Part shown: one piece after another, positions 2,848 to 32,000 of the stretch | Layout of the letters: the number at the start of each line of letters is the position of its first letter | Position numbering within the stretch: the stretch's first letter is position 1 | Assembly: GCA_963675515.1 (NCBI GenBank) | Contig: OY776328.1 | Coordinates: forward strand, 1,230,001-1,262,000 | Direction of reading: 5' to 3' | From: Coprobacillaceae bacterium | GTDB taxonomy: Bacteria; Bacillota_I; Bacilli_A; Erysipelotrichales; Coprobacillaceae | Length of the DNA: 32,000 nt | Notes under the pieces: model-generated | What the model was told of the DNA's origin: nothing | The model's database searches: none | What the model saw: only the letters and a program-made list of their open reading frames with translations | Position numbers and translations under genes: made by a program

Positions 2848-2996
2848 GTGGCTAAGATAAATAGTTTAAGACCTTTTTGCAATAATGTGCAAAAAATATG
2901 ATCTATTGTTTGGGTCTTAACGAAGAATTGAATAATTATAAATAATGTTATATAAGTCTAGTTTCGTTTTTTACGAATATGAAAGGAGGAGATCGT

Positions 2997-12372: not shown

Positions 12373-13538
12373 ATCCGAAAATTTGGCTATGTTAGCCCAA
12401 AGCAATGCTTTCATAGATGAAGCCTGTTCCAATATAATTTTCTCGCCTAAAATCACAATGGCATTGATAAATATCCACAAAATAATCATGGACGTCTCTA
12501 GCTCTTGTTTCAATCATGTATGCTATGTACGCCAGATATTCATTAAGGTATTTAGAAGATATCCCATTGTGTTTTTTCATATACTTTTCAATTTGAGAAT
12601 GCACGTAATTGACGTGATTTATGTGGTAGATTCCTCGCTTTGCCTTGCTTTTTGCTGGAAACGCATAATGGTCGATTTTCAGACTCTCACTTAATCTTCG
12701 ATATACGAATAATCCATCCGTACAAAGCGTTGTTGCTTTTTGAAGGTGTTTCAGATATACAGCGGTTGTCGTTTCGTTATCAAGCGTTGTCGATCCGATC
12801 TTAGCGACCTTGAGTAATATATGGCCGTTCCTGTCAACCGCGCTTGCTATTTGTACGGCATCGGTTATATTTTGATCTTTCTTGTCTCTACGGTTACCTT
12901 TTCGTCCTCTTTTATAGGGCTTCCTGGGTAATGGTTTTGCCGCCTGTTTACTGTGATTCCCGGAATAACTGATGTTTACGCTCATTTCATCTAATTCCAC
13001 AATCCCGCTAAGCTCAACGTTTTCCATCCTGTGAGCTAGCGCGTTCAATATTTTATGGCGCATGAAAAAACTGCATTTTAACGACACTCCTGCATATTTG
13101 GCACAGTCCCTCAAATCTTCGTCATGGCTCATTATTATCAGATACTTAAGCCAGGTTATATAAGAAAGTTTGGTATTCTCCAAAATTGTACCAACATACG
13201 GAGTAAAAGTTTTACCGCAATCAATGCATCTAAAACGTTGTGTTTTGTTTTTGTAGTGGCCATCTCGTTTAATATGATGGTGACCGCAACGAGGGCACGA
13301 AATTGAATCGTTGTGTTTGGCTTCTAATGCATCCACAAGGATCTTGGTGTAATCATTTAGAAGTTGACGGTCCTGAATGAAAACAATTAGGGCGTTTAAA
13401 TCATCGCTGTTTAAAGTATCCAGTTCATTCTTAATTTTTTCTAATTCCATGGTTATCCCACCTCTTCTCTATTATACACCTAATTCTACAGGAAAAGTCG
13501 ATAAACATCTTTATGGGCTAACATAGCCGAAAATTTGG
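12373..13538 (-). mobile_element. IS1595-family insertion sequence
   Basis: Single transposase ORF flanked by inverted repeats: ccgaaaatttGGCTATGTTAGCCCA (12373-12397) and TGGGCTAACATAGCCgaaaatttgg (13514-13538). The inner 15 nt are perfect. The outer limits are approximate. Confidence 0.75.
12392..13450 (-). CDS. IS1595-family (ISXO2-like) DDE transposase with N-terminal zinc ribbon
   Basis: CPRCGHHHIKRDGHYKNKTQRFRCIDCGKTF zinc ribbon; VELDEMSV, CTDGLFVYRRL and HINHVNYVHSQIEKYM match the IS1595 DDE/HxxVNH pattern. Confidence 0.85.
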   Translation of the reverse strand: MELEKIKNELDTLNSDDLNALIVFIQDRQLLNDYTKILVDALEAKHNDSISCPRCGHHHIKRDGHYKNKTQRFRCIDCGKTFTPYVGTILENTKLSYITWLKYLIIMSHDEDLRDCAKYAGVSLKCSFFMRHKILNALAHRMENVELSGIVELDEMSVNISYSGNHSKQAAKPLPRKPYKRGRKGNRRDKKDQNITDAVQIASAVDRNGHILLKVAKIGSTTLDNETTTAVYLKHLQKATTLCTDGLFVYRRLSESLKIDHYAFPAKSKAKRGIYHINHVNYVHSQIEKYMKKHNGISSKYLNEYLAYIAYMIETRARDVHDYFVDIYQCHCDFRRENYIGTGFIYESIALG

Positions 13539-16409: not shown

Positions 16410-16889
16410 GTGATTTTTTACAATGTGGCTGTAAATAATATTAAAATCGCCATTAATACACTAGATAAATTGTCAGACAATGAAAAGTTTGATGAAATGG
16501 ATATAGATATTTCGATGGTAATTATTAACGCGATTAGTAGTATTAGCAATTATTATGAACGTATTGATAAGAGTGTACTTTCCCCAAATCAGGATTTATG
16601 GTTTAGAGCATATGCGTATGTTAACAATCAGGTAAAACATGATATAGCACTTGAAATAATACACTACCCGGTGTTTGGGAGTGCCTACCCAATGGGCTAT
16701 CCAATGATTTTTGATTCACCAGGAGTTTGTTGGAATGATTTTGTTGATAACGGTAGTATTAAGGCTAGAGGGAAACGAAACCATTATGATGCATGTCTAT
16801 GTGATGAAGATATCGCGTATACTTTCTCAAGAATATTAGAAATTATAGAGAGAGTTGAGTGTATAAAGCGGAGATCTTATATTGAGTGA
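16410..16889 (+). CDS. Hypothetical protein (159 aa) immediately upstream of hsdR
   Basis: GTG start after AGGGGGTGA. The stop lies 54 nt before the probable hsdR start, or overlaps the longest hsdR ORF by 4 nt. Confidence 0.5.
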   Translation: MIFYNVAVNNIKIAINTLDKLSDNEKFDEMDIDISMVIINAISSISNYYERIDKSVLSPNQDLWFRAYAYVNNQVKHDIALEIIHYPVFGSAYPMGYPMIFDSPGVCWNDFVDNGSIKARGKRNHYDACLCDEDIAYTFSRILEIIERVECIKRRSYIE

Positions 16890-16942
16890 ATTTGCCTTTT
16901 CTGTTCGAGTCGGCAACAGAGAAATTTAAGGGGGTGGGCGAA

Positions 16943-19900
16943 GTGAAAATTAATGAAGATACTTTAGAACAAGCGATCATTTCAGAACTTCAGGAAAAGG
17001 GTTATGAATATGTATATGGCCCAGATATCGCCCGAGATTATCATGAGGTAATTTTGGAGGATTGCTTTCTGGCTTCTATGTTAAATATAAATCCAGGTAT
17101 TACCCAAGAAATAATTTCTGAAACCTATAAAGAAATAATGAACCTAGGATTATTGAGGGTTGAGGATCTGAATGCATCATTTCATAAATATATTGTCGAA
17201 GGGGTGCCAATATCTTATCAGAAAGATGGAGAAAATCGTACATTCACTGTAAGGTTGATCGATTTTGAGAATGCGTCCGCAAATGATTTTAAAGTCATAA
17301 ATCAATTTACCGTCATCGAGTATAAGAATAAACGTCCGGATATTTTGGTGTTTATCAACGGGATTCCGATGGTTGTTTTTGAACTAAAAAATATGGGCAA
17401 CGACAGCACCACTGTTGAGCAGGCGTACAAGCAAGTCAAGAATTATCAGCTGGATATCCCATCCTTATTTCAATACAATGCTTTTAATGTCATCAGTGAT
17501 GGCATTGATACTAGGGTGGGGACCATTACGTCCGACTATACTAGATACATGGCGTGGAAGTCTGAAGACGGCGAGAAGCCAAATGAAAATGCAAGTGACT
17601 TCTTTACTGTGATGTTAAATGGTATGTTTTCAAAGGGACGGCTTCTTGACATTGTTCGAAACTTCATTGTGTTTCAGGATATCCAAGGGAAAACTGTAAA
17701 AATATTGGCGGGCTACCACCAGTATTTTGCGGTTCGCAAGGCTGTTGAAAGTACCAGAACGGCATTGAAAGAAAAAAGTCGTAAGGTTGGTGTTGTTTGG
17801 CATACTCAAGGGAGTGGGAAGAGTTTGTCAATGGTGTTCTATTCGGGTATTATTGTAAGTGATCCCGAATTTGAGAATCCGACTATCGTGGTGCTGACTG
17901 ATCGTAACGATCTTGATAATCAGCTTTTTGGAACTTTCAGTGCAAGTTCAAAATTGCTCTTGCGTCAAACGCCAAAACAAGCAGAGAGCCGAGATAACCT
18001 GAAGGAGCTTCTTAAAGTAAAAGCTGGAGGAATTGTTTTCACGACCATTCAGAAGTTTGAGGAAGCTGACGATATTATCAATGATCGTAGCAATATTATC
18101 TTCATGGCTGATGAGGCGCATCGCTCTCAGTATGGTACTGAAGCTAAATTTGATCGAGAAACTGGTGAATGGAAATACGGTATGGCAAAACATATGCGTG
18201 ATGCCCTTCCGAATGCGACATTCATTGGCTTTACCGGTACACCGATTGATATGAAAGATAAATCAACAATAGAGGTCTTTGGGAAATATATCGATATTTA
18301 CGATATGACTCAAGCTGTAGATGATGGTGCAACCGTACCGATTTACTATGAAAACAGAACGGCAAAGCTTAAACTGAATGATAATGTACTAAAGCAAATT
18401 GATCAAGAATACTCTGAGTTGGCTGGCGAGTCTACTGAAATTGAAATTGAGAAGTCAAAAATGGATCTATCAAGCATTGAGGCCGTTGTTGGCTCTTCTG
18501 AACGATTGAATATGTTGGCTGACGATATAATTGCCCATTATGAGGACCGTCAATATGTGTTGACTGGAAAAGCAATGATCGTCTGTATGACTCGTAAAAT
18601 TGCAATCAATTTGTACAAGACATTGTTGGTTAAACGCCCTGAATGGAAAGAAAAGGTCAAGGTCGTTCTCACATCGAGCAATCAAGACCCGGAAGATTGG
18701 CACGATATTATTGGAAACAAAGCCTATCGGGATGGGTTAATGATTGAGTTCAAGGATAACAGTAGTGAATTCAAAATCGCTATCGTTGTGGATATGTGGC
18801 TAACCGGATTCGATGTCCCGTCTATGGCGACAATGTACATTGATAAGCCGATGAAAGGACATAACCTGATGCAGGCAATCGCTCGTGTAAACAGGGTGTA
18901 CAAGGACAAAGAAGCGGGACTTATTGTAGAGTATATTGGTATGGCTGCGGAGCTGAAGTCGGCCTTGAATCAATATACAAAGCGTGATCAGGATAAGGTA
19001 CCTGATATTGGTATTGCATACTCTATCGCAATGGCGAAACTTGAAGTTATGCGCGATATGTTCTATGGTTTTAATTACGGTGACTTTTTTGGTGAATCTA
19101 ATGTTCAAAGGCTGAAAGTGATTGCGGAAGGCGTGGATTTCGCTCTTGCGTTTGAAGAAGATGAGTCTAAGGAATATATCAAGGAGGCAACGGCGTTGAG
19201 CCAAGCGGAGACACTTTGCCGAAGCTTAATGAGTGCTCACGATAAGAAAGAGATTGAGTTTTTCAAATGTGTAAAGGCTGGGATCTGTAAAATAGGGGGC
19301 AAAGGCAAGATAACTTCTAATGAAATTAATGCTCGTATTATGAAGATGCTTGAACAGGCCATTCAACAGGATGGCGTGGTAAATGTTTTTGAACAGTCTG
19401 GTCAGATAAATCCAGAAATCTCCCTATTGTCGGACGAATATATGGCACAAGTGCGTAAGATGAAGCACAAAAATATTGCAGCAGAACTATTACGAAGTCT
19501 ATTGGAAGATCATATCCGTTTTTTTTCAAGAACTGGTGTAGTAAAAGCTCAGCTATTTTCTGAAAAAATGCAAGATGTACTTAAACGGTACAATAATCGA
19601 ATGATAACCAGTGCGGAGGTCATTGAAGAACTATTGAACCTCTCAAAAGAGATTTCAGATGCTTATGCAGCAGGTGATGAAAAAGGATTATCCCACGAAG
19701 AATTAGCGTTTTATGATGCGCTTGTTGCTGATCCGGCAGTACTTCAAAATATGGAAGATGCCACATTGGTAGAAATGGCGCACGAGTTGACAACTCTAAT
19801 TCAGAAAAGTAGAACTGTGGATTGGGATAAGAAGCAGTCAGCACGAGCGTATATGAGGACTCAGATTAAACATTTGCTAAGAAAATACAAATATCCACCA

Positions 19901-19972
19901 GAACAAGCAAGCAATGCAATTGATACAGTTATAAAACAGGCTGAGTTAATGAGTGGAAATATGAAAATGTAA
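16943..19972 (+). CDS. hsdR: Type I restriction endonuclease R subunit, apparently intact
   Basis: The probable start is GTG 16943 after AAGGGGGTGG; the ORF is open from 16886. N-terminal PD-(D/E)xK: RPDILVFINGIPMVVFELKN. Helicase motif I: HTQGSGKSLSMVF. DEAH box: FMADEAHRSQYG. Motifs FIGFTGTP and QAIARVNR plus a C-terminal helical domain are present. Confidence 0.93.
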   Translation: MKINEDTLEQAIISELQEKGYEYVYGPDIARDYHEVILEDCFLASMLNINPGITQEIISETYKEIMNLGLLRVEDLNASFHKYIVEGVPISYQKDGENRTFTVRLIDFENASANDFKVINQFTVIEYKNKRPDILVFINGIPMVVFELKNMGNDSTTVEQAYKQVKNYQLDIPSLFQYNAFNVISDGIDTRVGTITSDYTRYMAWKSEDGEKPNENASDFFTVMLNGMFSKGRLLDIVRNFIVFQDIQGKTVKILAGYHQYFAVRKAVESTRTALKEKSRKVGVVWHTQGSGKSLSMVFYSGIIVSDPEFENPTIVVLTDRNDLDNQLFGTFSASSKLLLRQTPKQAESRDNLKELLKVKAGGIVFTTIQKFEEADDIINDRSNIIFMADEAHRSQYGTEAKFDRETGEWKYGMAKHMRDALPNATFIGFTGTPIDMKDKSTIEVFGKYIDIYDMTQAVDDGATVPIYYENRTAKLKLNDNVLKQIDQEYSELAGESTEIEIEKSKMDLSSIEAVVGSSERLNMLADDIIAHYEDRQYVLTGKAMIVCMTRKIAINLYKTLLVKRPEWKEKVKVVLTSSNQDPEDWHDIIGNKAYRDGLMIEFKDNSSEFKIAIVVDMWLTGFDVPSMATMYIDKPMKGHNLMQAIARVNRVYKDKEAGLIVEYIGMAAELKSALNQYTKRDQDKVPDIGIAYSIAMAKLEVMRDMFYGFNYGDFFGESNVQRLKVIAEGVDFALAFEEDESKEYIKEATALSQAETLCRSLMSAHDKKEIEFFKCVKAGICKIGGKGKITSNEINARIMKMLEQAIQQDGVVNVFEQSGQINPEISLLSDEYMAQVRKMKHKNIAAELLRSLLEDHIRFFSRTGVVKAQLFSEKMQDVLKRYNNRMITSAEVIEELLNLSKEISDAYAAGDEKGLSHEELAFYDALVADPAVLQNMEDATLVEMAHELTTLIQKSRTVDWDKKQSARAYMRTQIKHLLRKYKYPPEQASNAIDTVIKQAELMSGNMKM

Positions 19973-20212: not shown

Positions 20213-20881
20213 ATGTACAAGATAATGATAGTCGAAGATGACAATGTAATTTCTTTGATACTAGAAAATCATCTGGAAAAATGGGGGTATCAAGTTGAGT
20301 GTATCACGGATTTTAGCGAGGTTCTAAGTAATGTTACCGATTTTGCTCCGGATTTGGTTCTACTGGATATCCACTTGCCTTTATTCGATGGTTATCACTG
20401 GTGCCGGGAGATAAGGAATATATCCCGGATTCCGATAATCTTCATTTCATCAGCCAATGAAAATATGAATATCGTTATGGCAATGAATATGGGTGGTGAT
20501 GATTTTATCAGTAAGCCGTTCAATTTGAATGTGATAACTGCAAAAATTCAGGCAGTCTTAAGGAGAACTTACAGTTTTGCTCCGGATTTCCATTTACTTA
20601 CATATAATGATGTCATATTGGATGTTTCTTCTGCCACTATTTCTTTTAAGAATGCGGTCTTGGATCTTACTAAAAATGAAGTCAAAATTCTCGAGTTGAT
20701 GTTCCAGAAACCTGAAACGATTATGTCTCGCGAGGAAATTATGAACTTTCTTTGGGATGACCATCAGTTTGTCGACGATAATACTCTAAGCGTCAATGTT
20801 AATCGGTTACGAAAGAAACTTGAGACAATCGGTTTGGTTGATTTCATCAAGACAAAAAAAGGAATGGGGTATCTGATTTGA
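20213..20881 (+). CDS. OmpR-family response regulator, BceR-like
   Basis: Receiver domain (MIVEDD...LLDIHLP...SKPF) plus a winged-helix C-terminus (LTKNEVKILELM...VNVNRLRKKLE...GMGYLI). It is linked to an intramembrane-sensing kinase and a BceAB-type transporter. Confidence 0.9.
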   Translation: MYKIMIVEDDNVISLILENHLEKWGYQVECITDFSEVLSNVTDFAPDLVLLDIHLPLFDGYHWCREIRNISRIPIIFISSANENMNIVMAMNMGGDDFISKPFNLNVITAKIQAVLRRTYSFAPDFHLLTYNDVILDVSSATISFKNAVLDLTKNEVKILELMFQKPETIMSREEIMNFLWDDHQFVDDNTLSVNVNRLRKKLETIGLVDFIKTKKGMGYLI

Positions 20882-21852
20882 TTTTTAAATATCTCAACTA
20901 TCGAAAAGCTATTTACCTGATATTCATAAGTTTCATTGTTTTTGAAGTATTGGTACTCTCTCTCGTGCATATTGAGGCTTCGGTGATTGAGTACCTAGCT
21001 TTAATTTGGCTTTCCTTGGTAGTTGGTTTTGGAATCTTCGATTTCATGATTTTTAATAACCATTACCGAAATGTCATCAATTTAAAGAATTCAATCGAAG
21101 ATTCTATGGGATCAATGTTTAAAGCTAATAATGTCTTGGAACGGGAATATCATGATTTGATTAAGCAATTATACACTCTGAATTTAGAAATCAAACATAT
21201 CAATCTGGAAAAATATCAATCGATGATTAATTATTATACTATCTGGGTTCATCAGACTAAGACACCGATTTCAGCATTGAAGCTGTTGGTCCAGTCGGAG
21301 GGCAACAATCAGGAAATGGCGATGGAACTGTTAAAGATTGAACAATATGTTAATATGGTACTTCAGTATCTCAGACTTGATGATATAAATAATGACTTTT
21401 TATTTGAACATGTGTCACTAGACAAACTTGTCAGTGATGTGCTGAAAAAACAGGTGACCTTTTTTGCCCATGATAAAATCAACCTCGAATACAAAATTGA
21501 TGATACCAAAGTGTTGACTGATGAAAAATGGAGTTCTTTTGTGATTGAACAAGTCCTTTCCAATGCGATCAAGTATACCAAGCAAGGAACTATTTCGATT
21601 TACAATGATGCCACTAAACTCTATATACAGGATACCGGGGTAGGAATAAAGGCAGAGGATCTCCCGCGTGTCTTTGAACGGGGCTTTACCGGTTTTCAGG
21701 GTCGCAAAGACAAGAAAGCCAGCGGCATTGGATTATATCTAGTCAAACTGATTTTAGACAAACTGAATCAAGGCATTACGATTGAATCAATTGTAGGGAC
21801 TGGAACTACTGTCTGTATTGATTTCTACAAAAGAAACATCTTTATCGAGTAA
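20878..21852 (+). CDS. Intramembrane-sensing histidine kinase, BceS-like
   Basis: TTG start overlapping the regulator's stop. It has two N-terminal TM helices and no extracellular domain. H-box: WVHQTKTPISAL. N box: SNAIKYT. G boxes: DTGVGI and GIGLYLV. Confidence 0.88.
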   Translation: MIFKYLNYRKAIYLIFISFIVFEVLVLSLVHIEASVIEYLALIWLSLVVGFGIFDFMIFNNHYRNVINLKNSIEDSMGSMFKANNVLEREYHDLIKQLYTLNLEIKHINLEKYQSMINYYTIWVHQTKTPISALKLLVQSEGNNQEMAMELLKIEQYVNMVLQYLRLDDINNDFLFEHVSLDKLVSDVLKKQVTFFAHDKINLEYKIDDTKVLTDEKWSSFVIEQVLSNAIKYTKQGTISIYNDATKLYIQDTGVGIKAEDLPRVFERGFTGFQGRKDKKASGIGLYLVKLILDKLNQGITIESIVGTGTTVCIDFYKRNIFIE

Positions 21853-21872
21853 TCTTACAAAATTGTAAGATT
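21851..21872 (+). promoter_or_regulatory. Perfect inverted repeat AATCTTACAAAATTGTAAGATT; candidate BceR-type regulator binding site
   Basis: The core TTACA-AAAT-TGTAA fits, as I recall it, the TNACA-N4-TGTAA consensus described for BceR-like regulators. It lies about 85 nt upstream of the transporter ATG. Confidence 0.65.
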
Positions 21873-21879
21873 GGAAAGG

Positions 21880-21921
21880 GGAAATGTAAGGGGCATCTAT
21901 GGATGGACATTTCCTTTTTTT
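21880..21921 (+). terminator. Hairpin + T-run after the two-component genes
   Basis: GGAAATGT (21880-21887) pairs with ACATTTCC (21907-21914), followed by TTTTTTT. The 19-nt loop is long for a terminator. Confidence 0.45.
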
Positions 21922-21956
21922 GGTAAACTGATAGAGAAGGGAAGGTACTAATTATT

Positions 21957-22730
21957 ATGATATTATTAAAAGTAAACCAATTAAAGAAAGTTTATACAAC
22001 CCGTTTTTCAAAACAAAAAGTCGAGGCTTTGAAAAACGTTAATTTTGAAATTGAAGAAGGCGAATATGTCGCCATCATGGGCGAATCTGGCAGTGGAAAA
22101 ACAACCTTACTTAATATTCTGGCATCACTTGACAGGCCAACAAATGGTGAAGTACTTCTGGCTGGCCAAGATATCACCAAAATCAAGGATAAGGAAATTT
22201 CTTCATTTAGGAGACAGAACCTCGGATTTGTGTTCCAGGATTTCAATCTCCTTGATAATCTGTCGGTAGAAGATAATATCTATTTACCGTTAGTTCTCTC
22301 CAAAGAGAAATATCACTCTATGAATGAAAAATTGCTAGCTTTAGCACCAAAACTTGGAATTGCAGACTTGCTGGAAAAATATCCTTATGAGATCTCCGGT
22401 GGCCAGAAACAAAGGGTAGCTGTGGCAAGGGCATTGATCACTAGTCCCAAGCTTGTATTAGCAGATGAGCCAACTGGTGCCTTGGATTCCAAATCAACCG
22501 ACAATCTACTAGAAATCTTTGATGAAATCCATAAATCAAACCAGACAATTTTGATGGTTACACATTCAACCAAAGCCGCCAGCTATGCCAGCCGGGTATT
22601 GTTCATCAAGGATGGGGAAATCTATCATCAGCTCTATAAAGGAAATCTTTCAAACAATCAGATGTATCAGAAAATTTCGGATACCCTCAATATGATTGCT
22701 ACTGGAGGACGTCAAGATGGGATTCTTTAA
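21957..22730 (+). CDS. ABC transporter ATP-binding protein, BceA/MacB-type
   Basis: Walker A GESGSGKTT, Q-loop, signature SGGQKQRVAVARAL, Walker B LVLADEPTGALD, H-loop MVTHS. Confidence 0.93.
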   Translation: MILLKVNQLKKVYTTRFSKQKVEALKNVNFEIEEGEYVAIMGESGSGKTTLLNILASLDRPTNGEVLLAGQDITKIKDKEISSFRRQNLGFVFQDFNLLDNLSVEDNIYLPLVLSKEKYHSMNEKLLALAPKLGIADLLEKYPYEISGGQKQRVAVARALITSPKLVLADEPTGALDSKSTDNLLEIFDEIHKSNQTILMVTHSTKAASYASRVLFIKDGEIYHQLYKGNLSNNQMYQKISDTLNMIATGGRQDGIL

Positions 22731-24641
22731 TAAATTGGCCCGAACCAATATCTATAAGAATCGCAAGTTTTACTATCCTTATATTTTTTCAGCGATCTTT
22801 ACTAGCTGTCTTTTCTATATAGTTAGATCACTTTATTACAGTGAATCTCTAGCGCAGAGGCCTACAATAAGTACCTTCATGTCAATGGAGACTTATATAA
22901 TCATGATCTTCGCAACAATTTATCTGCTTTATGCTAATAGCTTTGTCCTAAAAAACCGAAAAAAAGAAATCAGTCTCTACAATATATTGGGAATGGAAAA
23001 AAGGCATGTAATGGTGATGATGTTGGTGGAAACAATGATTGTAGCCACGCTTTCAATTATCGCAGGAGTAATCATGGGAATCCTGTTTGGCCAGTTGATG
23101 GATCTGTTGATTACCAATCTGATCCATGCCCCGATTCAGTTTTCATTAACTATCTCATTTGAAGGTATTGGGGAAACAATACTTTTCTATTTGGCAATCT
23201 TTTTGGCCTCGATGGTTGTCAATCTATTAAGCGTCCAATTAACTAACCCGATTGAACTGCTAAAAGGCGGCAATATGGGAGAAAAAGAACCGAAGACCAA
23301 ATTAGTTACGACGATTTTCGGGCTACTTGCCCTTGGAACTGGATATTTCATCGCCCTAACCATAACTGATCCCGTTCTGGCTATCACCTTGTTTTTTGTA
23401 GCGGTGATTCTGGTGATGATCGGAACCTATTGTCTTTTCACAGCTGGTTCGATTACCCTGTTAAAACTGCTTCGGAAAAACAAACACTACTATTATCAGA
23501 CCCGTCATTTCACTGCGATTTCTGGATTGATTTATCGGATGAAGCAAAACGCAATCGGTCTTGCTAATATTTGCATTCTTTGTACCTGTGTTCTGGTAAC
23601 TTTTTCCTCGACTTTCTGTATGTATATCGGTATACAGGAAACCGTAGATGGCCAATGCCCGGCAGATCAAATCATGGTCGGTTATACTTCGGGCATAGAA
23701 AATAACTTTAAAGAAATCGCTTCAGCACATCTTAAAGACCTTGATTATCATGATTACTTCGCCTTTGATCTTTTGGATACTGTAGGTGTCTATAACGACG
23801 GTCATGTAATGTTGGAAACGACATCCAGCAATAGTTTCAATGATGTCGTCAATATCAATGCCCTTAGTCAGGATACTTTCAATCGGGGATTCAATCAGAA
23901 TATTGTATTGACCGCCAACCAGGTCTGGCTTTACACCAGTTTCGACTATGAAGAAAGCGACATCTGGATTGATGGGGTTGATTATCAGGTCACTGGAATG
24001 TTTAATGATCCTCGGATCATGGTCAACAATTACTATGCACCCCGAAGAATGGCAATAATTTTCGCCAATGACAAGATTGAGACAATCCCGGCCTTGACAG
24101 AGCTGGTTCCTGGTTATGCCATTGGCTTTGACAGCGATGATCCTAACCTCGAGACAACTGTTGATGCTATTGAGACTGAATTCTTCAACCAAGAAGGTTC
24201 ACGCTCGATTTTTCTTTAAATCATGAAGCTCAGTTGCAAGACAGTTATGAGGTGCTGGGCGGTTTGCTTTTCATCGGTATCTTCATGTCGGTGATGTTTT
24301 TGATGGCTGCGATATTGATTATCTACAACAAGCAACTCTCCGAAGGGTATGAGGATCAAAATAAATTTGAAATACTTCAGAACGTTGGAATGAGCCATAA
24401 GGAGGTCAAACAAGCAATAAGGAGCCAGGTATTGGTATTTTTCTTTTTGCCGCTAATAGTGGCGATTATCCATCTAGTCTTTGCCTTCCCGCTGATACTA
24501 AGGGTTCTAAAATTATTTCTACTTGCCAATATCAAAACCTACTTTACCGTCACTATTATCTCGGTAGTTATTTTGTCTGCAGTCTACTCATTTGTCTATC
24601 TTTTCACTGCCAAAACATATTATCAGATTGTCAAAAAATAA
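22717..24641 (+). pseudogene. BceB-type FtsX-family ABC permease, split by a frameshift near 24190-24235
   Basis: ATG 22717 after GGAGGA; product MGFFNKLARTNIYKNRKFYYPYI... The first frame stops at TAA 24217-24219. The final TM bundle continues in another frame, open from about 24180 (SLNHEAQLQDSYEVLGGLLFIGIFMSVMFLMAAILIIYNKQLSEGYEDQNKFEILQNVGM...). The combined length of about 640 aa is typical of BceB. Confidence 0.8.
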
Positions 24642-26129: not shown

Positions 26130-26539
26130 ATGTGGTCATTCAAAACGCTTTTTGAATTTGATGTACTACAAACCACCTGGCACGAGTATCCCGGGGCACT
26201 CGACGTGTGGAAACGCAATTTCAAATTTGTGGAGCAACTCTTTGATTACGGCAGTGATGTACGCAAAATCATGTACACCACAAATGCAATCGAAGCTATC
26301 AATTCAAGCTTCAGGAAGGTCACTAAAAAAGGCACCTTCCCAAACGAAAACGCCTTATTCAAACTTTTATATTTGCGATGTGTTGAATTGGAAAATAAGT
26401 GGGACGGTGGAGTCATCCGTGGTTGGTCACAAGTGCTGAACCAACTGACTATAAATGGCTCGTTTTCGTCAAGACTGCAAAAATATTTGGCGCTAATAGT
26501 TCTTTGAAAAAATACTTACACACTTTTCTTGACAAACCC
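26130..26539 (+). pseudogene. IS256-family (mutator-type) transposase C-terminal fragment plus its terminal repeat
   Basis: ...YPGALDVWKRNFKFVEQLFDYGSDVRKIMYTTNAIEAINSSFRKVTKKGTFPNENALFKLLYL...KW... is the conserved IS256 C-terminal block. The N-terminal two thirds are missing. The element end ...CTTGACAAACCC abuts the IS21 end copy. Confidence 0.7.
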
Positions 26540-26667: not shown

Positions 26668-27213
26668 TTACATTAGTATTGAATTCAATATTATTGCCAA
26701 TATAGATAAGCACGAACCGGTGGCAGCATATGCGAAATAGCTACTCTGTAAAGCAAACAATATGAAGATAGTTGAAGTGTTTATTGAATACAGAAACACA
26801 ATATTTCGAAGATCTTTTCTCTTAAAAGTCCTCTTATGAGAGTTAACATTTATGAGGACAAATAGAGAAAGAGCCAGTAAGTAGGCCAAGACATACATAA
26901 AACTTGAAGAGGTAATTGAACTTAGTATCATCCCAATCATCCAAATACCAACACCTAACAAATAACATTTTAACGGAGTTTTAGCATGATATCCTTCATT
27001 GTAGGTCCTGAAGACTAGAAAACATGCCAGCATTACAAGTGACTCGAAAAATCTACCGCTAATTACTGAAATAATTAAATAATTAACTGAATTTAAAAAA
27101 AATATTACTATGGCGGATAGAGCATATTCTATCTGCTGCTTTTTGTAATCGTCTTCAATACAATTTTTTTGGCATATCAATTTGGAAATAATGGATACAA
27201 ATTTGGTTAACAT
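26668..27213 (-). CDS. agrB: AgrB-family autoinducing-peptide processing membrane peptidase
   Basis: 181 aa polytopic membrane protein. FRTYNEGYHAKTPLKCYLLG aligns with the S. aureus AgrB catalytic segment RRHAHGAHAPSSFWCY, with R, G, H, A, C and Y conserved. Confidence 0.8.
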   Translation of the reverse strand: MLTKFVSIISKLICQKNCIEDDYKKQQIEYALSAIVIFFLNSVNYLIISVISGRFFESLVMLACFLVFRTYNEGYHAKTPLKCYLLGVGIWMIGMILSSITSSSFMYVLAYLLALSLFVLINVNSHKRTFKRKDLRNIVFLYSINTSTIFILFALQSSYFAYAATGSCLSILAIILNSILM

Positions 27214-27214
27214 G

Positions 27215-28552
27215 CTACACCTCGTTGTTATAAATATAGATCTTTTTGTCTTGAGGGTTTACCGTTGGAATCAAAATGGTTATTCTAAATGCCATGTCTG
27301 TATAGTTAACATTCATCAGTCCATCATATTTATTAACGATTTTCTTAATGTTTTTCAAACCGTAACCGTGATTAGTACCACCTTTTCTTGAAAGGATATT
27401 TGTGTTATCCAGCTTGATTTCACCATCGAATGTATTCTCACATATAATCCTAATCATTTTATTTGGTAGTAAGGTTATTGATAAGCTGATTCTTTTATCA
27501 TCAGTCTTCTGAACAGCCTCTAAGGCATTAGAAGTAATATTTCCAAATAAAGAGCATAGATCAAAGTTCTCGATATATGATATATCTGGAACTTCTAATT
27601 CAATGTTAACTGGAACGTTCAAGGAATTACTTTTGCTGATAAAGTCACTGATTGTTGAGTCGAGGTAAATGTTTCCTGTATTTACAATGATAATTTTATT
27701 ATCCAGATCATAACCGATATTCTTAATATAGTCACCCAATTGAGTATATGACTTATTTGAGACGAGGTGGCCAAGTGTGTTGAGATGGAATTTTATGTCA
27801 TGTTTCCAGCCTTTAAGGTGATTATATGACCTAATGGTTCTGTCATAGAGTTCAGTTTTTAGTTCATTTTCTTTTAATAAAATGTCATATTGGTATTTTC
27901 TTGTTAGCGTGGATATTAAAATTCTTGTTTGAATAAAAGATATTATATTTATTGAAAAAAGTGTTATTGCAACTACTAGCATATAAATATTGCTTGATCC
28001 TACTATAAGATAATGCCTTAAGATAAATATCATCGATATTATTGACGATAACGGAATAAGTATGTATACGTATATGTGTTTACTATTGTTTTCAAAACTA
28101 TCTTTGCTTAATTTTTTATTATATATAAATGAAGTTGAAAAAATTAATAGAAATATCAATATTCTAGTTACAAACATTAATGTAATTCTAATGTTGTTGT
28201 CGGAAACTAAGTGATCAACTTTGATATTTAGATAGGATGTGACGATTGATATGGTAAATAATTCAGATAGGTTAAAAATGAAAAATACCAGTAAGGGAAT
28301 TAATAATTTCAAGACATAATTATCTTTAAAAAATAAGAAACTGTATAAAATGTAAATCAAAAATATAACAATAGTTATATTAGAATTGTAGTTCCCTATT
28401 GTAAATATCGTTAGTATGAAAAATGCAACAGTAAAAGTCATCGCACTTATTATCTTTATGTTTATATCCTTGGTTATCAATGTTGAATTTATAGCATAGA
28501 GTGCAATAATTACATCTATACAATTAATAAATAATTCAAAAGCCAAATACAT
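27215..28552 (-). CDS. AgrC-like (HPK10) sensor histidine kinase
   Basis: About 200 aa of multiple TM helices. H-box: GWKHDIKFHLNTLGHL. N box: GNITSNALEA. G box: GYGLKNIKKIVNKYDG. It sits between a LytTR regulator gene and agrB. Confidence 0.85.
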   Translation of the reverse strand: MYLAFELFINCIDVIIALYAINSTLITKDINIKIISAMTFTVAFFILTIFTIGNYNSNITIVIFLIYILYSFLFFKDNYVLKLLIPLLVFFIFNLSELFTISIVTSYLNIKVDHLVSDNNIRITLMFVTRILIFLLIFSTSFIYNKKLSKDSFENNSKHIYVYILIPLSSIISMIFILRHYLIVGSSNIYMLVVAITLFSINIISFIQTRILISTLTRKYQYDILLKENELKTELYDRTIRSYNHLKGWKHDIKFHLNTLGHLVSNKSYTQLGDYIKNIGYDLDNKIIIVNTGNIYLDSTISDFISKSNSLNVPVNIELEVPDISYIENFDLCSLFGNITSNALEAVQKTDDKRISLSITLLPNKMIRIICENTFDGEIKLDNTNILSRKGGTNHGYGLKNIKKIVNKYDGLMNVNYTDMAFRITILIPTVNPQDKKIYIYNNEV

Positions 28553-28557
28553 GTGTT

Positions 28558-29265
28558 TTATCCTCCAAAAAGTTCTAGAAGTAGAACTTTTACTTCTTTC
28601 ATTTTTGATCTGCTAACCGGAATAAAATCGCCGTTGTTGAGTTGAATATATGGACCGTTAAAAGAACGGATCATATTCAGGTTTATAATATAAGATCTAT
28701 GAACTCTGTACATGTCATGGTTTGAGAGCAATATTTCCATTTGCGATATGGATATATTAATAATTTTTTCTTCACCAACCATGTGGAAAATGCATGAATG
28801 TTTATCGGACTCTATATATATTAAAGATCGGGTGTCAATAATGTAGTAGCCATTATACGCTTTGAAACTAATCATTCTTCCAACATCTTTTTTAATTTGC
28901 TGCTCGATTTTACATAATGTTTGAGTGAATCTGTTCGAATTTACTGGTTTCAATATGTAGTCTAATGCAGAAACTTCATAGCCGTTAATTGCGTATTGAT
29001 TATGCGATGTAATAAAACAAATAATGATATTTTTATTCATTTTTCTAAGTTGCTTTGCAAACTCAATTCCGGAAATTTCAGGGATTTCTATATCTATTAG
29101 CGCTACATCACAAGAAATGATATTTTCGGGAATATCATATGTTACTTTATTTGATATCAGATAATCCACGAAAATGTCAGTTTTTATGGACCAGTTTTTA
29201 ATGATTTTAGTTAATTTGTTAAGATCATTACTTGAATCCTCTGCTATAAAGAATTTTATTTTCAT
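28558..29265 (-). CDS. AgrA-like response regulator with LytTR DNA-binding domain
   Basis: Receiver domain (FIAEDS...ALIDIEIPEISG...LKP) plus LytTR (SFKAYNGYYIIDTRSLIYIESDKHSCIFH...MYRVHRSYIINLNMI). Confidence 0.9.
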   Translation of the reverse strand: MKIKFFIAEDSSNDLNKLTKIIKNWSIKTDIFVDYLISNKVTYDIPENIISCDVALIDIEIPEISGIEFAKQLRKMNKNIIICFITSHNQYAINGYEVSALDYILKPVNSNRFTQTLCKIEQQIKKDVGRMISFKAYNGYYIIDTRSLIYIESDKHSCIFHMVGEEKIINISISQMEILLSNHDMYRVHRSYIINLNMIRSFNGPYIQLNNGDFIPVSRSKMKEVKVLLLELFGG

Positions 29266-29651
29266 AAGTATATTAGCCCCCTCAAAATGCCATAAATATC
29301 ATAATAACAACTTAGATGATAAATACATAACTACATCTTTGATGTAAATATATTAGGTATTATATCACACTGTTGGTTTGAATGTAAGCTTAAGTACACA
29401 ATTGTATAGTGTACGAATAATGATTGTTAATAAATTTACAAAATGTAGTTTGATTTTAGAAAATTCAAATGTCAATTATATGATTAATTCGCTATTCTAT
29501 TAACTCCTAATATTGAAAGTGAGTAACTATTGAGTTTTTTTATGTCTGTGCCTTATTTACAAATCTTGAATTTATCGCATAGTTATTGTTTATGGAATAT
29601 ATTTTTCTTTAAGCGGAATATTGCTTTTGTAGGTCACACTAATACTTATTT

Positions 29652-29690
29652 CAGTTATCTGTGCAAAAATACTGCAGTTGATGCAAAAAG
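29652..29690 (+). promoter_or_regulatory. Imperfect direct repeat CAGTTatcTGTGCAAAAA / CAGTTgaTGCAAAAA; candidate LytTR (AgrA-type) binding boxes
   Basis: Two CAGTT-containing units lie 23 nt apart start to start, 60-95 nt upstream of the agrD-like ATG. AgrA boxes are 9-bp ACAGTTAAG-type direct repeats with 12-13 nt spacers. Confidence 0.45.
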
Positions 29691-29747
29691 ATGGATTAAA
29701 TAAATTAAAATTGTTTTAATTTCATCATAGTATAGAGGAGGGCATAT

Positions 29748-29867
29748 ATGAATTCGAGCAAATTGGTCAAGACGCTAGTAAAGATTTCTGATATTTCAAG
29801 CGGAATCACTTGTTGGGGAGTATTTTATCAGCCTAAATCTCCCAAAAAGATAAAAGTAAGTAGATAA
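29748..29867 (+). CDS. agrD: AgrD-like autoinducing-peptide precursor (39 aa); not in the ORF track
   Basis: ATG is 7 nt after AGAGGAGGG. Product MNSSKLVKTLVKISDISSGITCWGVFYQPKSPKKIKVSR*. It has an amphipathic leader, a single Cys followed by four residues (CWGVF, ring-sized), then YQPKSPK. This resembles the clostridial AgrD tail (C-LWFT-HQPEEPK in C. perfringens, from memory). Confidence 0.6.
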   Translation: MNSSKLVKTLVKISDISSGITCWGVFYQPKSPKKIKVSR

Positions 29868-29927
29868 ACTTGATAATTTCGTTGAATTATTCAGTTAAAT
29901 ATTTAATGTGGAAAGGGGGTGAATTGT

Positions 29928-30062
29928 GTGGAAGAAGCAAAAATGTTTAATGCTAACTTGGGTGTATGTGTTGCTTCACCTGAATTGGCTTTAACAGGTT
30001 ATATTGCTGGGATGGAAGCGTTAACTCTTATTTGTAGCTTTGCGGCTCTATTATTAGGGTAA
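29928..30062 (+). CDS. Small hydrophobic precursor peptide (44 aa), candidate substrate of the downstream radical-SAM enzyme; not in the ORF track
   Basis: GTG 29928 is 8 nt after AAAGGGGG. Product (M)EEAKMFNANLGVCVASPELALTGYIAGMEALTLICSFAALLLG*. It has a short polar leader, a hydrophobic core with 2 Cys and a C-terminal Gly, and lies about 200 nt upstream of the rSAM gene. Confidence 0.55.
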   Translation: MEEAKMFNANLGVCVASPELALTGYIAGMEALTLICSFAALLLG

Positions 30063-30081
30063 TGAAAATCTAGCTTTTCCT

Positions 30082-30127
30082 AAATAACGATAGAGAGTAT
30101 TTAAATAGCTGCTTTCTATCGTTATTT
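30082..30127 (+). terminator. 13-bp perfect hairpin between precursor gene and rSAM gene (attenuator/terminator candidate)
   Basis: AAATAACGATAGA (30082-30094) pairs with TCTATCGTTATTT (30115-30127) around a 20-nt loop. The stem is AT-rich and ends in TTATTT. Confidence 0.45.
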
Positions 30128-30259
30128 CATGTATGCAATAGGATAGTTAAGGGAATAATCAATAGTAACACAAATTTACAGTACGATTGCGAAAATAAAT
30201 ATAAAAATTGGTGAATATGATATTTATTAATATAATATATTAAAATAGAGGGAGTATAT

Positions 30260-31570
30260 ATGGATAATTATATTTGCTTAAGAGACAAAAGCTACCTAAA
30301 AAGAAAACCTATCGGTATGTATTTTTCGGCAGTCAACAATGACGTCAGAGTCGAAGTTGGATTAAACGAGAGTGCGGAATCAATTATAAGCTGTTTAACT
30401 GGGGAAATGAGAATACATGACATAGTGGTCAAATTAGCTGAAAAATTTAACGATAGTCATGAGAAAGTTGATAAAATAGTGCGTGAATTTATTGATGTAC
30501 TTGATGTCAGCAATCAGCTAGAATATTTTAGTTCTCCTATTTTTAGAAAAGTTTTAGTTAAAGGTAGTGAAGAATATTATGTTCCAGAGGTAGCAGTGTT
30601 AGAGTTGACACACAACTGCCCTTTAAAATGCAAACATTGTTATTTGGATGCGGGGATAGGTCCTAGTATGGATAGGTTGAAATTACTTGAGTTAATTAAT
30701 ACTTTTTCTGAATACGGTGTCCAGTGTATTCAATTGACTGGTGGGGAACCCTTCTTATACCCGTTTATTGAAGAAATAATTGACTTGTTGATACTTGAAA
30801 ATATTAAAATACAAATAACTACGAGTGGTTTTATTTTTAACGAAAAAGTGTCTAGAATACTTGATAAAATTTCCAATAGAGGAAGTTTGGTTCAAATTAG
30901 TATTGATGGATTGGAAAATAGTCATAATAAGATACGTGGGAATGACAAGGCGTATGAAAAAGCCCTGTACTTTCTTAATGAGTGCTCCTTAAGGAAAATT
31001 ACAACCGTTGCTGCCACATGTGTTGTCAGTCAGGAATTTGAGGAAATAGAGCTTTTAACTATTAAACTTAAAAAAATGGGGGTATCATTACATAGGATAG
31101 GCCGTATATCGGATCAAGGGAGGGCTAAATCCAATAATATTTCATCGCAAATGTCGGGTGACCTTCTGAACAATTTAATAGATACTTTGAAAAACAAATA
31201 CAATGATGACAGTTATAGAATCGGAGGTTTTGAAGATATTGATTGTGAGAAAGAATACAATTGTGGAGCGGGCTATAATTTAATAAATATTTCCCCGACA
31301 TTTAAAATTTCTCCTTGTCCGATGATGAATATTTGTATAGGTAATCTTGCTGAGGAAGATTTTGAGAGTGTTATCAGGCGAAATAGTTCAGTTTTTGTGA
31401 ACTTAAGACGACCATTCGATGATATATGTAAAGGTTGTGAACGTGAATATGATTGTAAAAATTGTATTGCTGAGGCGTATACTAATAAAGATGGGGTTAA
31501 TCATTGTGGGTGGTATAATGACGAATTTAAAAGTGTAGAAAAAGAATTCAGTTCGAGTTTTAATAATTGA
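30260..31570 (+). CDS. Radical SAM / SPASM-domain peptide maturase with N-terminal PqqD-like RRE (sactisynthase-like)
   Basis: CPLKCKHCY is the CxxxCxxC motif. GGEPFLY is the SAM-binding motif. The N-terminal ~90 aa (SAESIISCLTGEMRIHDIVVKLAEKF...VREFIDVL) are RRE-like. C-terminal Cys clusters (CGAG...CPMM...CKGCEREYDCKNC...HCGW) are typical of SPASM auxiliary Fe-S domains. Confidence 0.85.
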   Translation: MDNYICLRDKSYLKRKPIGMYFSAVNNDVRVEVGLNESAESIISCLTGEMRIHDIVVKLAEKFNDSHEKVDKIVREFIDVLDVSNQLEYFSSPIFRKVLVKGSEEYYVPEVAVLELTHNCPLKCKHCYLDAGIGPSMDRLKLLELINTFSEYGVQCIQLTGGEPFLYPFIEEIIDLLILENIKIQITTSGFIFNEKVSRILDKISNRGSLVQISIDGLENSHNKIRGNDKAYEKALYFLNECSLRKITTVAATCVVSQEFEEIELLTIKLKKMGVSLHRIGRISDQGRAKSNNISSQMSGDLLNNLIDTLKNKYNDDSYRIGGFEDIDCEKEYNCGAGYNLINISPTFKISPCPMMNICIGNLAEEDFESVIRRNSSVFVNLRRPFDDICKGCEREYDCKNCIAEAYTNKDGVNHCGWYNDEFKSVEKEFSSSFNN

Positions 31571-31679
31571 ATTATTTTTTCCTTTTTATGTATTTCTATC
31601 ATTTCAAGAGGCTGTTTTTGTGATCGCTATTAGATTAAATAAGTTTATTTGAAGGGATTGTACAAGTTAGGAGATTATT

Positions 31680-32000
31680 ATGATTAAATTAAATAATATA
31701 GAATTTAGTTACGGTAGGAATGTGGTATTAAGTGATTTTTCTTTGGAAATCCCAAAGAAAAATGTAGTAAGTATTTTGGGACATAATGGTGCGGGTAAGA
31801 CAACAATTGCAAAGTTGATAGCAGGATCACTATTGCCAGGGAAGGGAAGTGTGTATAATGGAATTGAACCTAAAAACATATTCTTTTTCTCGAACAAAGG
31901 AAATGTATACGCCAACATGTCTCTAGAAGAAAACATTAAATTTCTAAGAATGTTGAAAGGAATAAACAGAGATGACACAATAATCAATGAAAGAGTCGGG
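31680..32000 (+). CDS. ABC transporter ATP-binding protein, 5' part (runs off the window)
   Basis: ATG after AGGAGA. Product MIKLNNIEFSYGRNVVLSDFSLEIPKKNVVSILGHNGAGKTTIAKLIAG..., with a Walker A motif. The frame is open to the window end. Confidence 0.8.
   Translation, partial: MIKLNNIEFSYGRNVVLSDFSLEIPKKNVVSILGHNGAGKTTIAKLIAGSLLPGKGSVYNGIEPKNIFFFSNKGNVYANMSLEENIKFLRMLKGINRDDTIINERVG

Follow-up and report, generated by a model that had tools for sequence, protein, structure and literature searches.

The window analysed here is a stretch of 32,000 bp from the genome of a Coprobacillaceae bacterium (assembly GCA_963675515.1, contig OY776328.1, positions 1,230,001 to 1,262,000), and its right end was found to carry two back-to-back gene groups. 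The minus-strand group consists of genes for an AgrB-like protein, a sensor kinase and a LytTR regulator, while the plus-strand group runs from agrD through the gene of a 44-aa peptide and that of a radical S-adenosylmethionine (radical SAM) enzyme to an ATP-binding cassette (ABC) gene. It is quite likely that what the window holds is a biosynthetic gene cluster, seen in its left part, for radical-SAM-modified peptides of an uncharacterised family, which would belong to the peptides that are synthesized ribosomally and modified after translation (RiPPs), under an agr-type quorum circuit. An earlier note on this DNA had described a quorum-linked, sactipeptide-like RiPP cluster of minimal size. 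That description holds for the RiPP cluster and its precursor, for the link to quorum sensing and for the logic of the hairpin, and the locus represents a known kind of system in a variant that has not been characterised.

The plus-strand group opens with the gene for an AgrD autoinducer precursor of 39 aa (29748–29867), a member of TIGR04223 (36.2 bits against a cut-off of 19), which ends 60 nt upstream of the gene for the putative RiPP precursor on the same strand, as the earlier note had placed it. A Shine-Dalgarno sequence, GGAAAGGGGG, can be read at 29910–29919, 8 nt ahead of the GTG start codon of the precursor gene (29928–30062), whose product is (M)EEAKMFNANLGVCVASPELALTGYIAGMEALTLICSFAALLLG. 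A stem-loop (30082–30127) separates it from the gene for a 436-aa maturase (30260–31570), and the group is cut by the window end within the gene for an ABC transporter ATP-binding protein (PF00005), of which the first 107 aa are encoded at 31680–32000. On the minus strand lie genes for an AgrB-like membrane peptidase, the AgrD-processing enzyme (26668–27213, 181 aa, PF04647 with 76 bits, cut-off 23), an AgrC-like sensor histidine kinase with a polytopic N-terminus and a GHKL domain (27215–28552, 445 aa, PF14501 HATPase_c_5, 75 bits) and an AgrA-like LytTR response regulator (28558–29265, 235 aa, Response_reg 52 bits and LytTR 65 bits). The divergent intergenic region between the two groups (29266–29747) is the presumed site of the regulated promoters and contains the candidate direct repeats TGCAAAAATA and TGCAAAAAGA at 29662 and 29682.

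The start of the precursor gene was placed at 29928 rather than at a further GTG at 29919, since its homologues begin M/V/L-EEAK; the stop lies at 30062. A precursor-like small open reading frame (ORF) was found directly 5′ of the enzyme gene in every homologous locus that was retrieved with upstream sequence. The related loci, numbered here from L016 upwards, carry two copies in L016 (MEEAKMFKADLGVCAFQPELAVIGFTEGLAALTAICGAVAIVAG), two apiece in L018 and L019, one cut copy in L017 and a single one in L105, with two or three copies in the loci of Bacillus cereus and more distant versions in L020–L031, L034, L036 and L038. A profile built from three copies recovers the ORF upstream of homologous radical SAM genes with E values of 1e-28 to 1e-8, and the radical SAM genes adjoining the conserved ORF share 29–58% identity. 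Tandem copies within one locus differ at 4–10 nt, all of them synonymous (non-synonymous rate, dN, 0; synonymous rate, dS, 0.13–0.43). Between loci dN is 0.04–0.07 with dS saturated, and the copy in the window is the most divergent (dN 0.31–0.38). Judged by dN/dS, these comparisons show the ORF to be under purifying selection. The identification of this small ORF with its strong ribosome-binding site as a RiPP precursor, proposed in the earlier note, is thereby upheld: it had been made to depend on conservation of the ORF next to homologous radical SAM genes, and homologues with both cysteines do adjoin such genes in B. cereus and in metagenomic contigs.

The precursor peptide matched none of the Pfam or NCBIfam models. 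A word-indexed search of 5.8 billion proteins returned 16 relatives, all unnamed or "hypothetical", and an exhaustive profile search of 1.84 billion representative proteins gave 11 clusters at E ≤1e-3, a lower bound, as small ORFs are under-called. The family is rare and uncharacterised. It had been described as unannotated, a term that needs amending to "uncharacterised", since a called protein identical to the 44-aa product has already been recorded from the same 2.88-Mb contig and the B. cereus homologues are annotated as "hypothetical protein".

Within the peptide, residues 1 to ~13 are the presumed leader. The N-terminal pattern M-[EKQ]-[EK]-[PA]-x-[ML]-F is common to the precursors of sister enzyme clades with quite different cores (for example MENAEIFKLNFRACPIGHPSVKPF in L107 and ...KRCAQGRV in L108), which suggests that this shared segment is the leader bound by the RiPP recognition element (RRE) of the enzyme, and that the first cysteine, standing at a fixed register after it, is a modified residue. 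The two cysteines, C14 and C36, are invariant across 13–14 family members, and among the 13 members ending in glycine C14, A21, G28, L32, C36 and G44 are all invariant. Every cognate precursor type in the wider enzyme clade retains at least one cysteine. The AlphaFold2 (AF2) model of the 44-aa peptide is of low confidence (pLDDT 65); it predicts helix throughout, with a weak hint of helix breaks at residues 17 and 28.

The radical SAM enzyme matched PF04055 with 69 bits and carries a PqqD-type RRE at residues 33–81 (PF05402, 27.1 bits against a cut-off of 23.4). Its CxxxCxxC motif, formed by Cys120, Cys124 and Cys127, is invariant in 22 homologues. At the C-terminus the SPASM-like cysteines C335, C353, C390, C393, C399 and C402 are also invariant, with C416 at least 90% conserved; the Pfam SPASM model (PF13186) is not matched by the enzyme of the window and is recorded for homologues P0011–P0015. 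The N-terminal RRE, the C-terminal SPASM-type region and the ABC ATPase gene that follows were therefore all found as the earlier note had read them. The set of homologues is small (~23 clusters at E <1e-48), and a scan of genome contigs with the enzyme yielded distant radical SAM proteins alone, at 22–47% identity. AlbA and SkfB are the best specific NCBIfam matches, with scores that miss the equivalog cut-offs by a wide distance (95.5 of 850 bits for AlbA, NF012164; 79.9 of 300 for SkfB, TIGR04403; 50.4 of 625 for StsB, NF045574). Among solved structures the best sequence match is SkfB (6EFN, E 7e-19) at 18% identity. The AF2 model of the enzyme (pLDDT 91) aligns over its full length with SkfB, SuiB and CteB, which are also the top Foldseek matches (E 1.4e-23 and a TM score of ~0.64–0.71 for SkfB).

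Among the structural neighbours are SuiB, the maker of a Lys-Trp C-C bond, and at a greater distance the epimerase EpeE, and the chemistry is therefore not fixed by homology. A thioether is the likeliest modification because two of the three neighbours form thioethers and every cognate precursor keeps a cysteine, and we take it as probable, with appreciable doubt, that the product carries such a cross-link. That the cluster is as described here and the enzyme makes no thioether, catalysing instead an epimerisation (as YydG/EpeE do) or C-C or C-O cross-links while the cysteine pair serves as a disulfide or in packing, is rather unlikely. This view can draw on SuiB and EpeE among the neighbours, on the sactisynthase equivalog thresholds that the enzyme misses, and on the small invariant residues C14, A21, G28, C36 and G44, which stand 7, 7, 8 and 8 positions apart and could be a mere helix-packing motif. 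However, the best matches by sequence and fold are the thioether synthases SkfB, AlbA and CteB, cysteine is kept by all precursors of the clade, even the short hydrophilic ones in which helix packing is irrelevant, and there is no conserved Trp/Lys pair in the precursor family.

A thioether to the α-carbon, which would make the product a true sactipeptide, has somewhat less than an even chance in our estimation, and a non-alpha linkage, as in the ranthipeptides, is possible. Of the description as sactipeptide-like, the radical SAM RiPP cluster with RRE, SPASM-type region and cysteine-bearing precursor stands, while membership of the sactipeptide class is unproven, as no sactisynthase equivalog cut-off was reached. 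The presence of only two cysteines had been taken as a departure from known sactipeptides; low numbers of cross-links have precedents, though, in suisactin A with two thioaminoketals and enteropeptin with one (PMC12395415). The SCIFF/ranthipeptide type is recognised by a Cys-rich precursor (~six Cys in ~45 aa), and the peptide in the window has two and falls into no NCBIfam or Pfam family.

A more specific arrangement can be imagined from the spacing of the invariant residues, although it is doubtful. It would be a new thioether topology in which the peptide turns as a hairpin at G28, with C36 facing A21 and C14 facing residues 43–44, so that the staples run in both directions unlike those of all described sactipeptides, perhaps with subtilosin-like N-to-C cyclisation via the glycine and with an in-cluster TldD/E acting as the "pencil sharpener" of the leader. 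The pairing around G28 is speculation, weakly backed by the low-confidence model of the peptide, and it fits the constant-sum rule of the subtilosin and thuricin CD bridges. For head-to-tail cyclisation of the subtilosin kind the sole hint is the C-terminal glycine, invariant in 13 sequences.

Subtilosin A (sboA-albABCDEFG of Bacillus subtilis) is among the closest known systems. Both systems have a precursor of 43–44 aa in which a very short leader precedes a hydrophobic core and the last residue is glycine, a maturase of the RRE-radical SAM-SPASM type (AlbA being the best specific NCBIfam match, as given above), and an ABC ATPase and permease together with two metalloprotease-like proteins that form a pair. 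They differ in that the enzyme here, with 95 of 850 bits, stays far below the AlbA equivalog threshold, in the cysteines, which here number two with one in each half of the peptide (14 and 36) and in subtilosin three within the N-terminal half, in the protease pair, which in the relatives is of the PmbA_TldD type (M103) rather than the M16 pair AlbE/AlbF, and in regulation, which here is by agr. SkfB, the maturase of the sporulation killing factor, is the closest solved structure by sequence and fold and is a thioether-forming RiPP maturase with an N-terminal RRE; however, identity is 18%, the TIGR04403 score is 80 of 300 bits, the precursors are unrelated and the enzyme of the window has the full seven-Cys SPASM-type pattern.

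Between the precursor and enzyme genes the arms of the hairpin (30082–30097 and 30112–30127) span 16 nt with 94% complementarity, and the 13-bp perfect run that the earlier note had pointed out lies inside them. The minimum free energy is −26.4 kcal/mol (z = −5.05), and none of 200 shuffled sequences folded as well. The loop comprises 10–14 nt and the tail reads UUAUUUCAU. A simple terminator scan found no canonical intrinsic site, the hairpin being without a canonical U-tract, and the element is probably a leaky terminator or a stabiliser of the mRNA. In all close relatives (enzyme at least 45% identical) a strong stem-loop occurs between the last precursor copy and the enzyme gene, while none is found between tandem precursor copies. 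The stems in L016, L017, L018 and L105 are 11–17 bp long with z values of −4.6 to −5.9, and each is of a different sequence; a weaker equivalent exists in L100, and in B. cereus the stem is a weaker one of 9 bp. No hairpin was seen in distant relatives whose precursor abuts the enzyme gene, and the spacer between agrD and the precursor gene has no significant structure. A role for the hairpin in setting the precursor-to-enzyme ratio, by attenuation or by stabilisation of the transcript, is supported because the structure is kept while the sequence changes. The suggestion that the layout of precursor, hairpin and enzyme gene serves precursor excess is in line with its recurrence, with differing hairpin sequences, in all close relatives. 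An Rfam scan of 29200–30300 gave a single sub-threshold match to a small RNA (E 0.27).

The cluster had been called minimal, a description that does not survive comparison with its relatives. Genes for the radical SAM enzyme, the precursor, the ABC protein and a TldD/E-like pair were found together in ~20 loci from B. cereus and metagenomes, and the enzyme and precursor always stand beside an ABC ATPase, a membrane protein of ~215 aa (with a weak ABC-2 match in L027) and two proteins of the PmbA/TldD family. The conserved core thus adds an ABC-2-type permease and a TldD/TldE-like pair, the latter being present in every relative with enough flank. The gene order in L023–L027 is precursor-rSAM-ABC-permease-TldD-TldE, where rSAM is the radical SAM gene. 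In the pairs of L016, L018 and L100 the first protein has an HExxxH motif (HETIGH or HEAIGH) and the second has none, which is the TldD/TldE arrangement, and NCBI labels these proteins "metallopeptidase TldD-related protein". The ABC fragment of the window shares 55–66% identity with the ATPases encoded by the L016 and L018 clusters, and 44% with the one of B. cereus. Because of this identity and of the gene order in L023–L027, the permease and TldD/E genes of this genome are most likely located just past base 32000.

The pair resembles the TldD/TldE of microcin B17 in being of the heterodimer type, with one subunit carrying HExxxH and one lacking it. Under the "pencil-sharpener" model, removal of the leader by TldD/E halts at the first modification (PMC10885120, PMC5810440). 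For microcin B17, klebsazolicin and McC, TldD/E is a housekeeping enzyme encoded outside the cluster (PMC10885120), whereas the relatives of the present cluster have a dedicated pair beside the radical SAM enzyme.

A conserved ORF of 57–61 aa with two predicted hydrophobic segments follows the radical SAM gene in most close relatives (L016, 11292–11477; L018, 8612–8785; L105, 8913–9092; L102, 10493–10675) and may encode an immunity protein. It is not found in the 110-bp gap after the radical SAM gene of the window.

The product is most likely a membrane-active bacteriocin. The alternative that it is no exported antimicrobial and instead a membrane-resident or signalling peptide, such as a modified small membrane protein, is improbable. 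The core is indeed extremely hydrophobic and predicted, at low confidence, to be helical throughout, and its invariant small residues suggest helix-helix packing in a membrane. However, similar hydrophobicity is found in known sactibiotics (subtilosin A and thuricin CD among them), the precursor genes occur in 2–3 tandem copies, and a dedicated ABC ATPase, permease and leader-removing protease pair are typical of exported RiPP bacteriocins.

The AgrD, AgrB, kinase and LytTR regulator of the window all score above their family thresholds, while the regulator reaches only 31 of 400 bits with the AgrA equivalog NF046049. The thiolactone ring of the AgrD product is predicted, from the pattern of the agr family, to be C-W-G-V-F, followed by YQPKSPKK; a C-x4 ring and then [YH]QP is a pattern of clostridial AgrD peptides. 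The module thus shares all four components with clostridial agr systems but departs from them in its layout, in which there is no agrBD(CA) operon and agrD is split from agrB, heading the RiPP operon on the opposite strand.

Modules of the agr type adjoin the cluster in the window and in L016, L017, L018/L019, L028/L029 and L032. The module is divergent in the window; it follows the enzyme gene in L016 and L018/L019 in the order response regulator, histidine kinase, AgrD and AgrB, is reduced to the regulator and kinase in L017 and is represented by a kinase fragment in L032. In L028/L029 it lies upstream, in the order regulator, kinase, AgrD, precursor and radical SAM enzyme, and the order of the last three is that of the window although the enzyme is 31% identical. 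All AgrD-like peptides of the related loci pass TIGR04223. The kinase and regulator of the window are 26–31% identical to their counterparts in L016 and L018, and the AgrB proteins of these three loci gave no mutual match at E <1e-3, so that the modules appear to have been either recruited more than once or to have diverged very fast. Since the pairing repeats in several layouts with non-orthologous modules, functional coupling is favoured over chance adjacency, and quorum control of the cluster, already proposed in the earlier note, is plausible. It is an add-on and not a defining feature of the family, as the clusters of B. cereus have no agr genes and are flanked by LysR and GntR regulators instead.

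In the opposing view, the agr module is a mere neighbour that was brought in by a rearrangement mediated by insertion sequences (IS) and has no control of the cluster. The remnant of an IS256-type transposase that flanks agrB (26130–26507) is consistent with it, as are the LysR and GntR genes of B. cereus and the lack of significant LytTR boxes: the two candidate 10-mer repeat pairs at 20-bp spacing in 29266–29747 were equalled in 29 of 300 shuffles and are not above chance. Against this, the cluster is accompanied by agr modules of 26–31% identity in four or more different arrangements, a repeated association that is hard to obtain by chance, and in the window only 60 nt, free of structure, separate agrD from the precursor gene downstream on the same strand. 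A mere neighbour is accordingly a poor prospect, and quorum control is preferred.

Peptide quorum circuits are also known to drive operons of precursor, radical SAM enzyme and transporter in the streptococcal RaS-RiPPs (streptide, streptosactin and the enteropeptins), some products of which are sactipeptides with one or two cross-links (PMC13361665). There the regulator is of the Rgg/SHP type, whereas here it is an agr-type module (AgrBD, kinase and LytTR regulator), the precursors are unrelated, and no TldD/E pair has been described for the streptococcal systems. A gene for Rgg stands next to the sister-clade enzyme P0012 in L108 only, and not at the window.

The earlier note had also kept open that the radical SAM enzyme modifies AgrD as a second substrate, giving it a streptide-like Lys-Trp cross-link, in view of its Trp and Lys residues and of its position just ahead of the precursor. 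This is scarcely credible, because AgrD is a canonical member of TIGR04223 with AgrB present, in L016 and L018 it adjoins AgrB and stands four genes away from the radical SAM gene, and AgrD is missing from the clusters of B. cereus, which do encode the enzyme. Moreover, the shared leader motif is absent from the AgrD of the window and from those of the related loci, the latter have no Trp, and neither the Trp nor the Lys is conserved.

From the parts list and its conservation we infer the following sequence of events. AgrB would turn AgrD into a cyclic autoinducer with the ring CWGVF, which the AgrC-like kinase would sense, phosphorylating the LytTR regulator and so activating the divergent promoter region at 29266–29747. 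The agrD and precursor genes would be co-transcribed, and the stem-loop would curb read-through or stabilise the short transcript, leaving more mRNA for the peptide than for the enzyme. The RRE would bind the short leader M-[EKQ]-[EK]-[PA]-x-[ML]-F, and the radical SAM/SPASM core would join C14 and C36 to carbons of the backbone or of side chains; these cross-links, most likely thioethers, would staple the hydrophobic peptide as a helical hairpin. A TldD/TldE-like metalloprotease could then remove the leader, working from the N-terminus up to the point at which the first cross-link stops it, and the ABC ATPase with the ABC-2-type permease would export the product and/or protect the producer.

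Several of the results weigh against this account. The enzyme misses every NCBIfam equivalog cut-off named above, and its structural neighbours extend to SuiB and EpeE; no permease or TldD/E gene is visible in the window before base 32000. The hairpin lacks the U-tract of a canonical terminator and is missing in the distant relatives whose precursor abuts the enzyme gene. On the regulatory side, the B. cereus clusters do without agr genes, no significant LytTR-type repeats were detected in the divergent region, and promoter-like matches there were not above the expectation from shuffled sequence. A literature search, finally, turned up no experiment or publication on the precursor family.

Radical-SAM-modified peptides are fertile ground for finding new enzyme chemistry as well as narrow-spectrum antibiotics. 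The family is worth characterising for the absence of any family model, its very hydrophobic core, its unusual two-Cys arrangement and a TldD/TldE-type protease of its own. Its repeated coupling to non-orthologous agr-type circuits offers a natural handle, in that the cognate autoinducer could be used to induce an otherwise silent cluster. Characterisation would test whether the TldD/E pairs of Firmicutes are peptidases dedicated to RiPP leaders, which cross-link pattern is possible with two distant cysteines, and in what way the production of bacteriocins by clostridia is driven by agr systems.

Related enzymes outside the family were observed as well. In a sister clade with 38–40% identity (L108, 7732–9284; L103, 8725–10278) the radical SAM genes are accompanied by short hydrophilic one-Cys peptides ending in CAQGRV or CAQGRK, with an Rgg regulator and a major facilitator superfamily exporter as neighbours in L108 and a methyltransferase in Enterococcus silesiacus. 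A link to enteropeptin (KGR family) through the E. silesiacus homologue P0014 was considered and rejected, as its peptide ends in ...VVNCAQGRK and the core of enteropeptin is SMKGRCPPS (PMC12395415). This clade looks like another uncharacterised RaS-RiPP type that is not enteropeptin. Another sister clade is represented by the enzyme P0007 (44% identical) of the locus L107 (7700–9317), where two short precursors are encoded, MENAEIFKLNFRACPIGHPSVKPF and one ending in ...RGCPCPSSPPFKHLYL. The locus has no TldD/E genes, and its neighbours are genes for an ETX/MTX2 pore-forming toxin and a ricin-type lectin. Upstream of the agr-RiPP cluster of L029 (1713–4965) lie genes for a ThiF-family protein, a protein with a weak JAB-domain match and a beta-clamp-like protein, which may be a defence system unrelated to the cluster.

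The surroundings of the cluster in the window are a mosaic, in which IS elements occur together with a type I restriction enzyme and a Bce-type resistance module. The IS256-type remnant directly beside agrB (26130–26507) is the C-terminal part of an IS256/Mutator-family transposase, and an IS3-type rve transposase (328–1505) and an IS1595-type transposase (12392–13450) are found elsewhere in the window; the IS elements gave no plasmid matches. The region has the look of a rearranged mosaic island, which may explain why agrD is, unusually, apart from agrB. A protein of 1940 aa with an N-terminal P-loop NTPase of the NPHP3_N/STAND type is encoded at 2979–8801, preceded by an HTH_3 regulator (2019–2642), and a type I restriction R subunit is encoded at 16886–19972; together they probably form a defence island. 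The Bce-type peptide-antibiotic resistance module (20213–24641) comprises an OmpR-type regulator, a histidine kinase, an ABC ATPase and an FtsX permease, and could be linked to self-protection against the nearby peptide. A neighbouring BceA-like ATPase is 72–75% identical to Clostridium proteins; going by this similarity, the host would probably be one of the Clostridiaceae. The FtsX permease is split into ORFs of 507 and 135 aa, both with FtsX domains, and may be a pseudogene that arose by frameshift or nonsense mutation.

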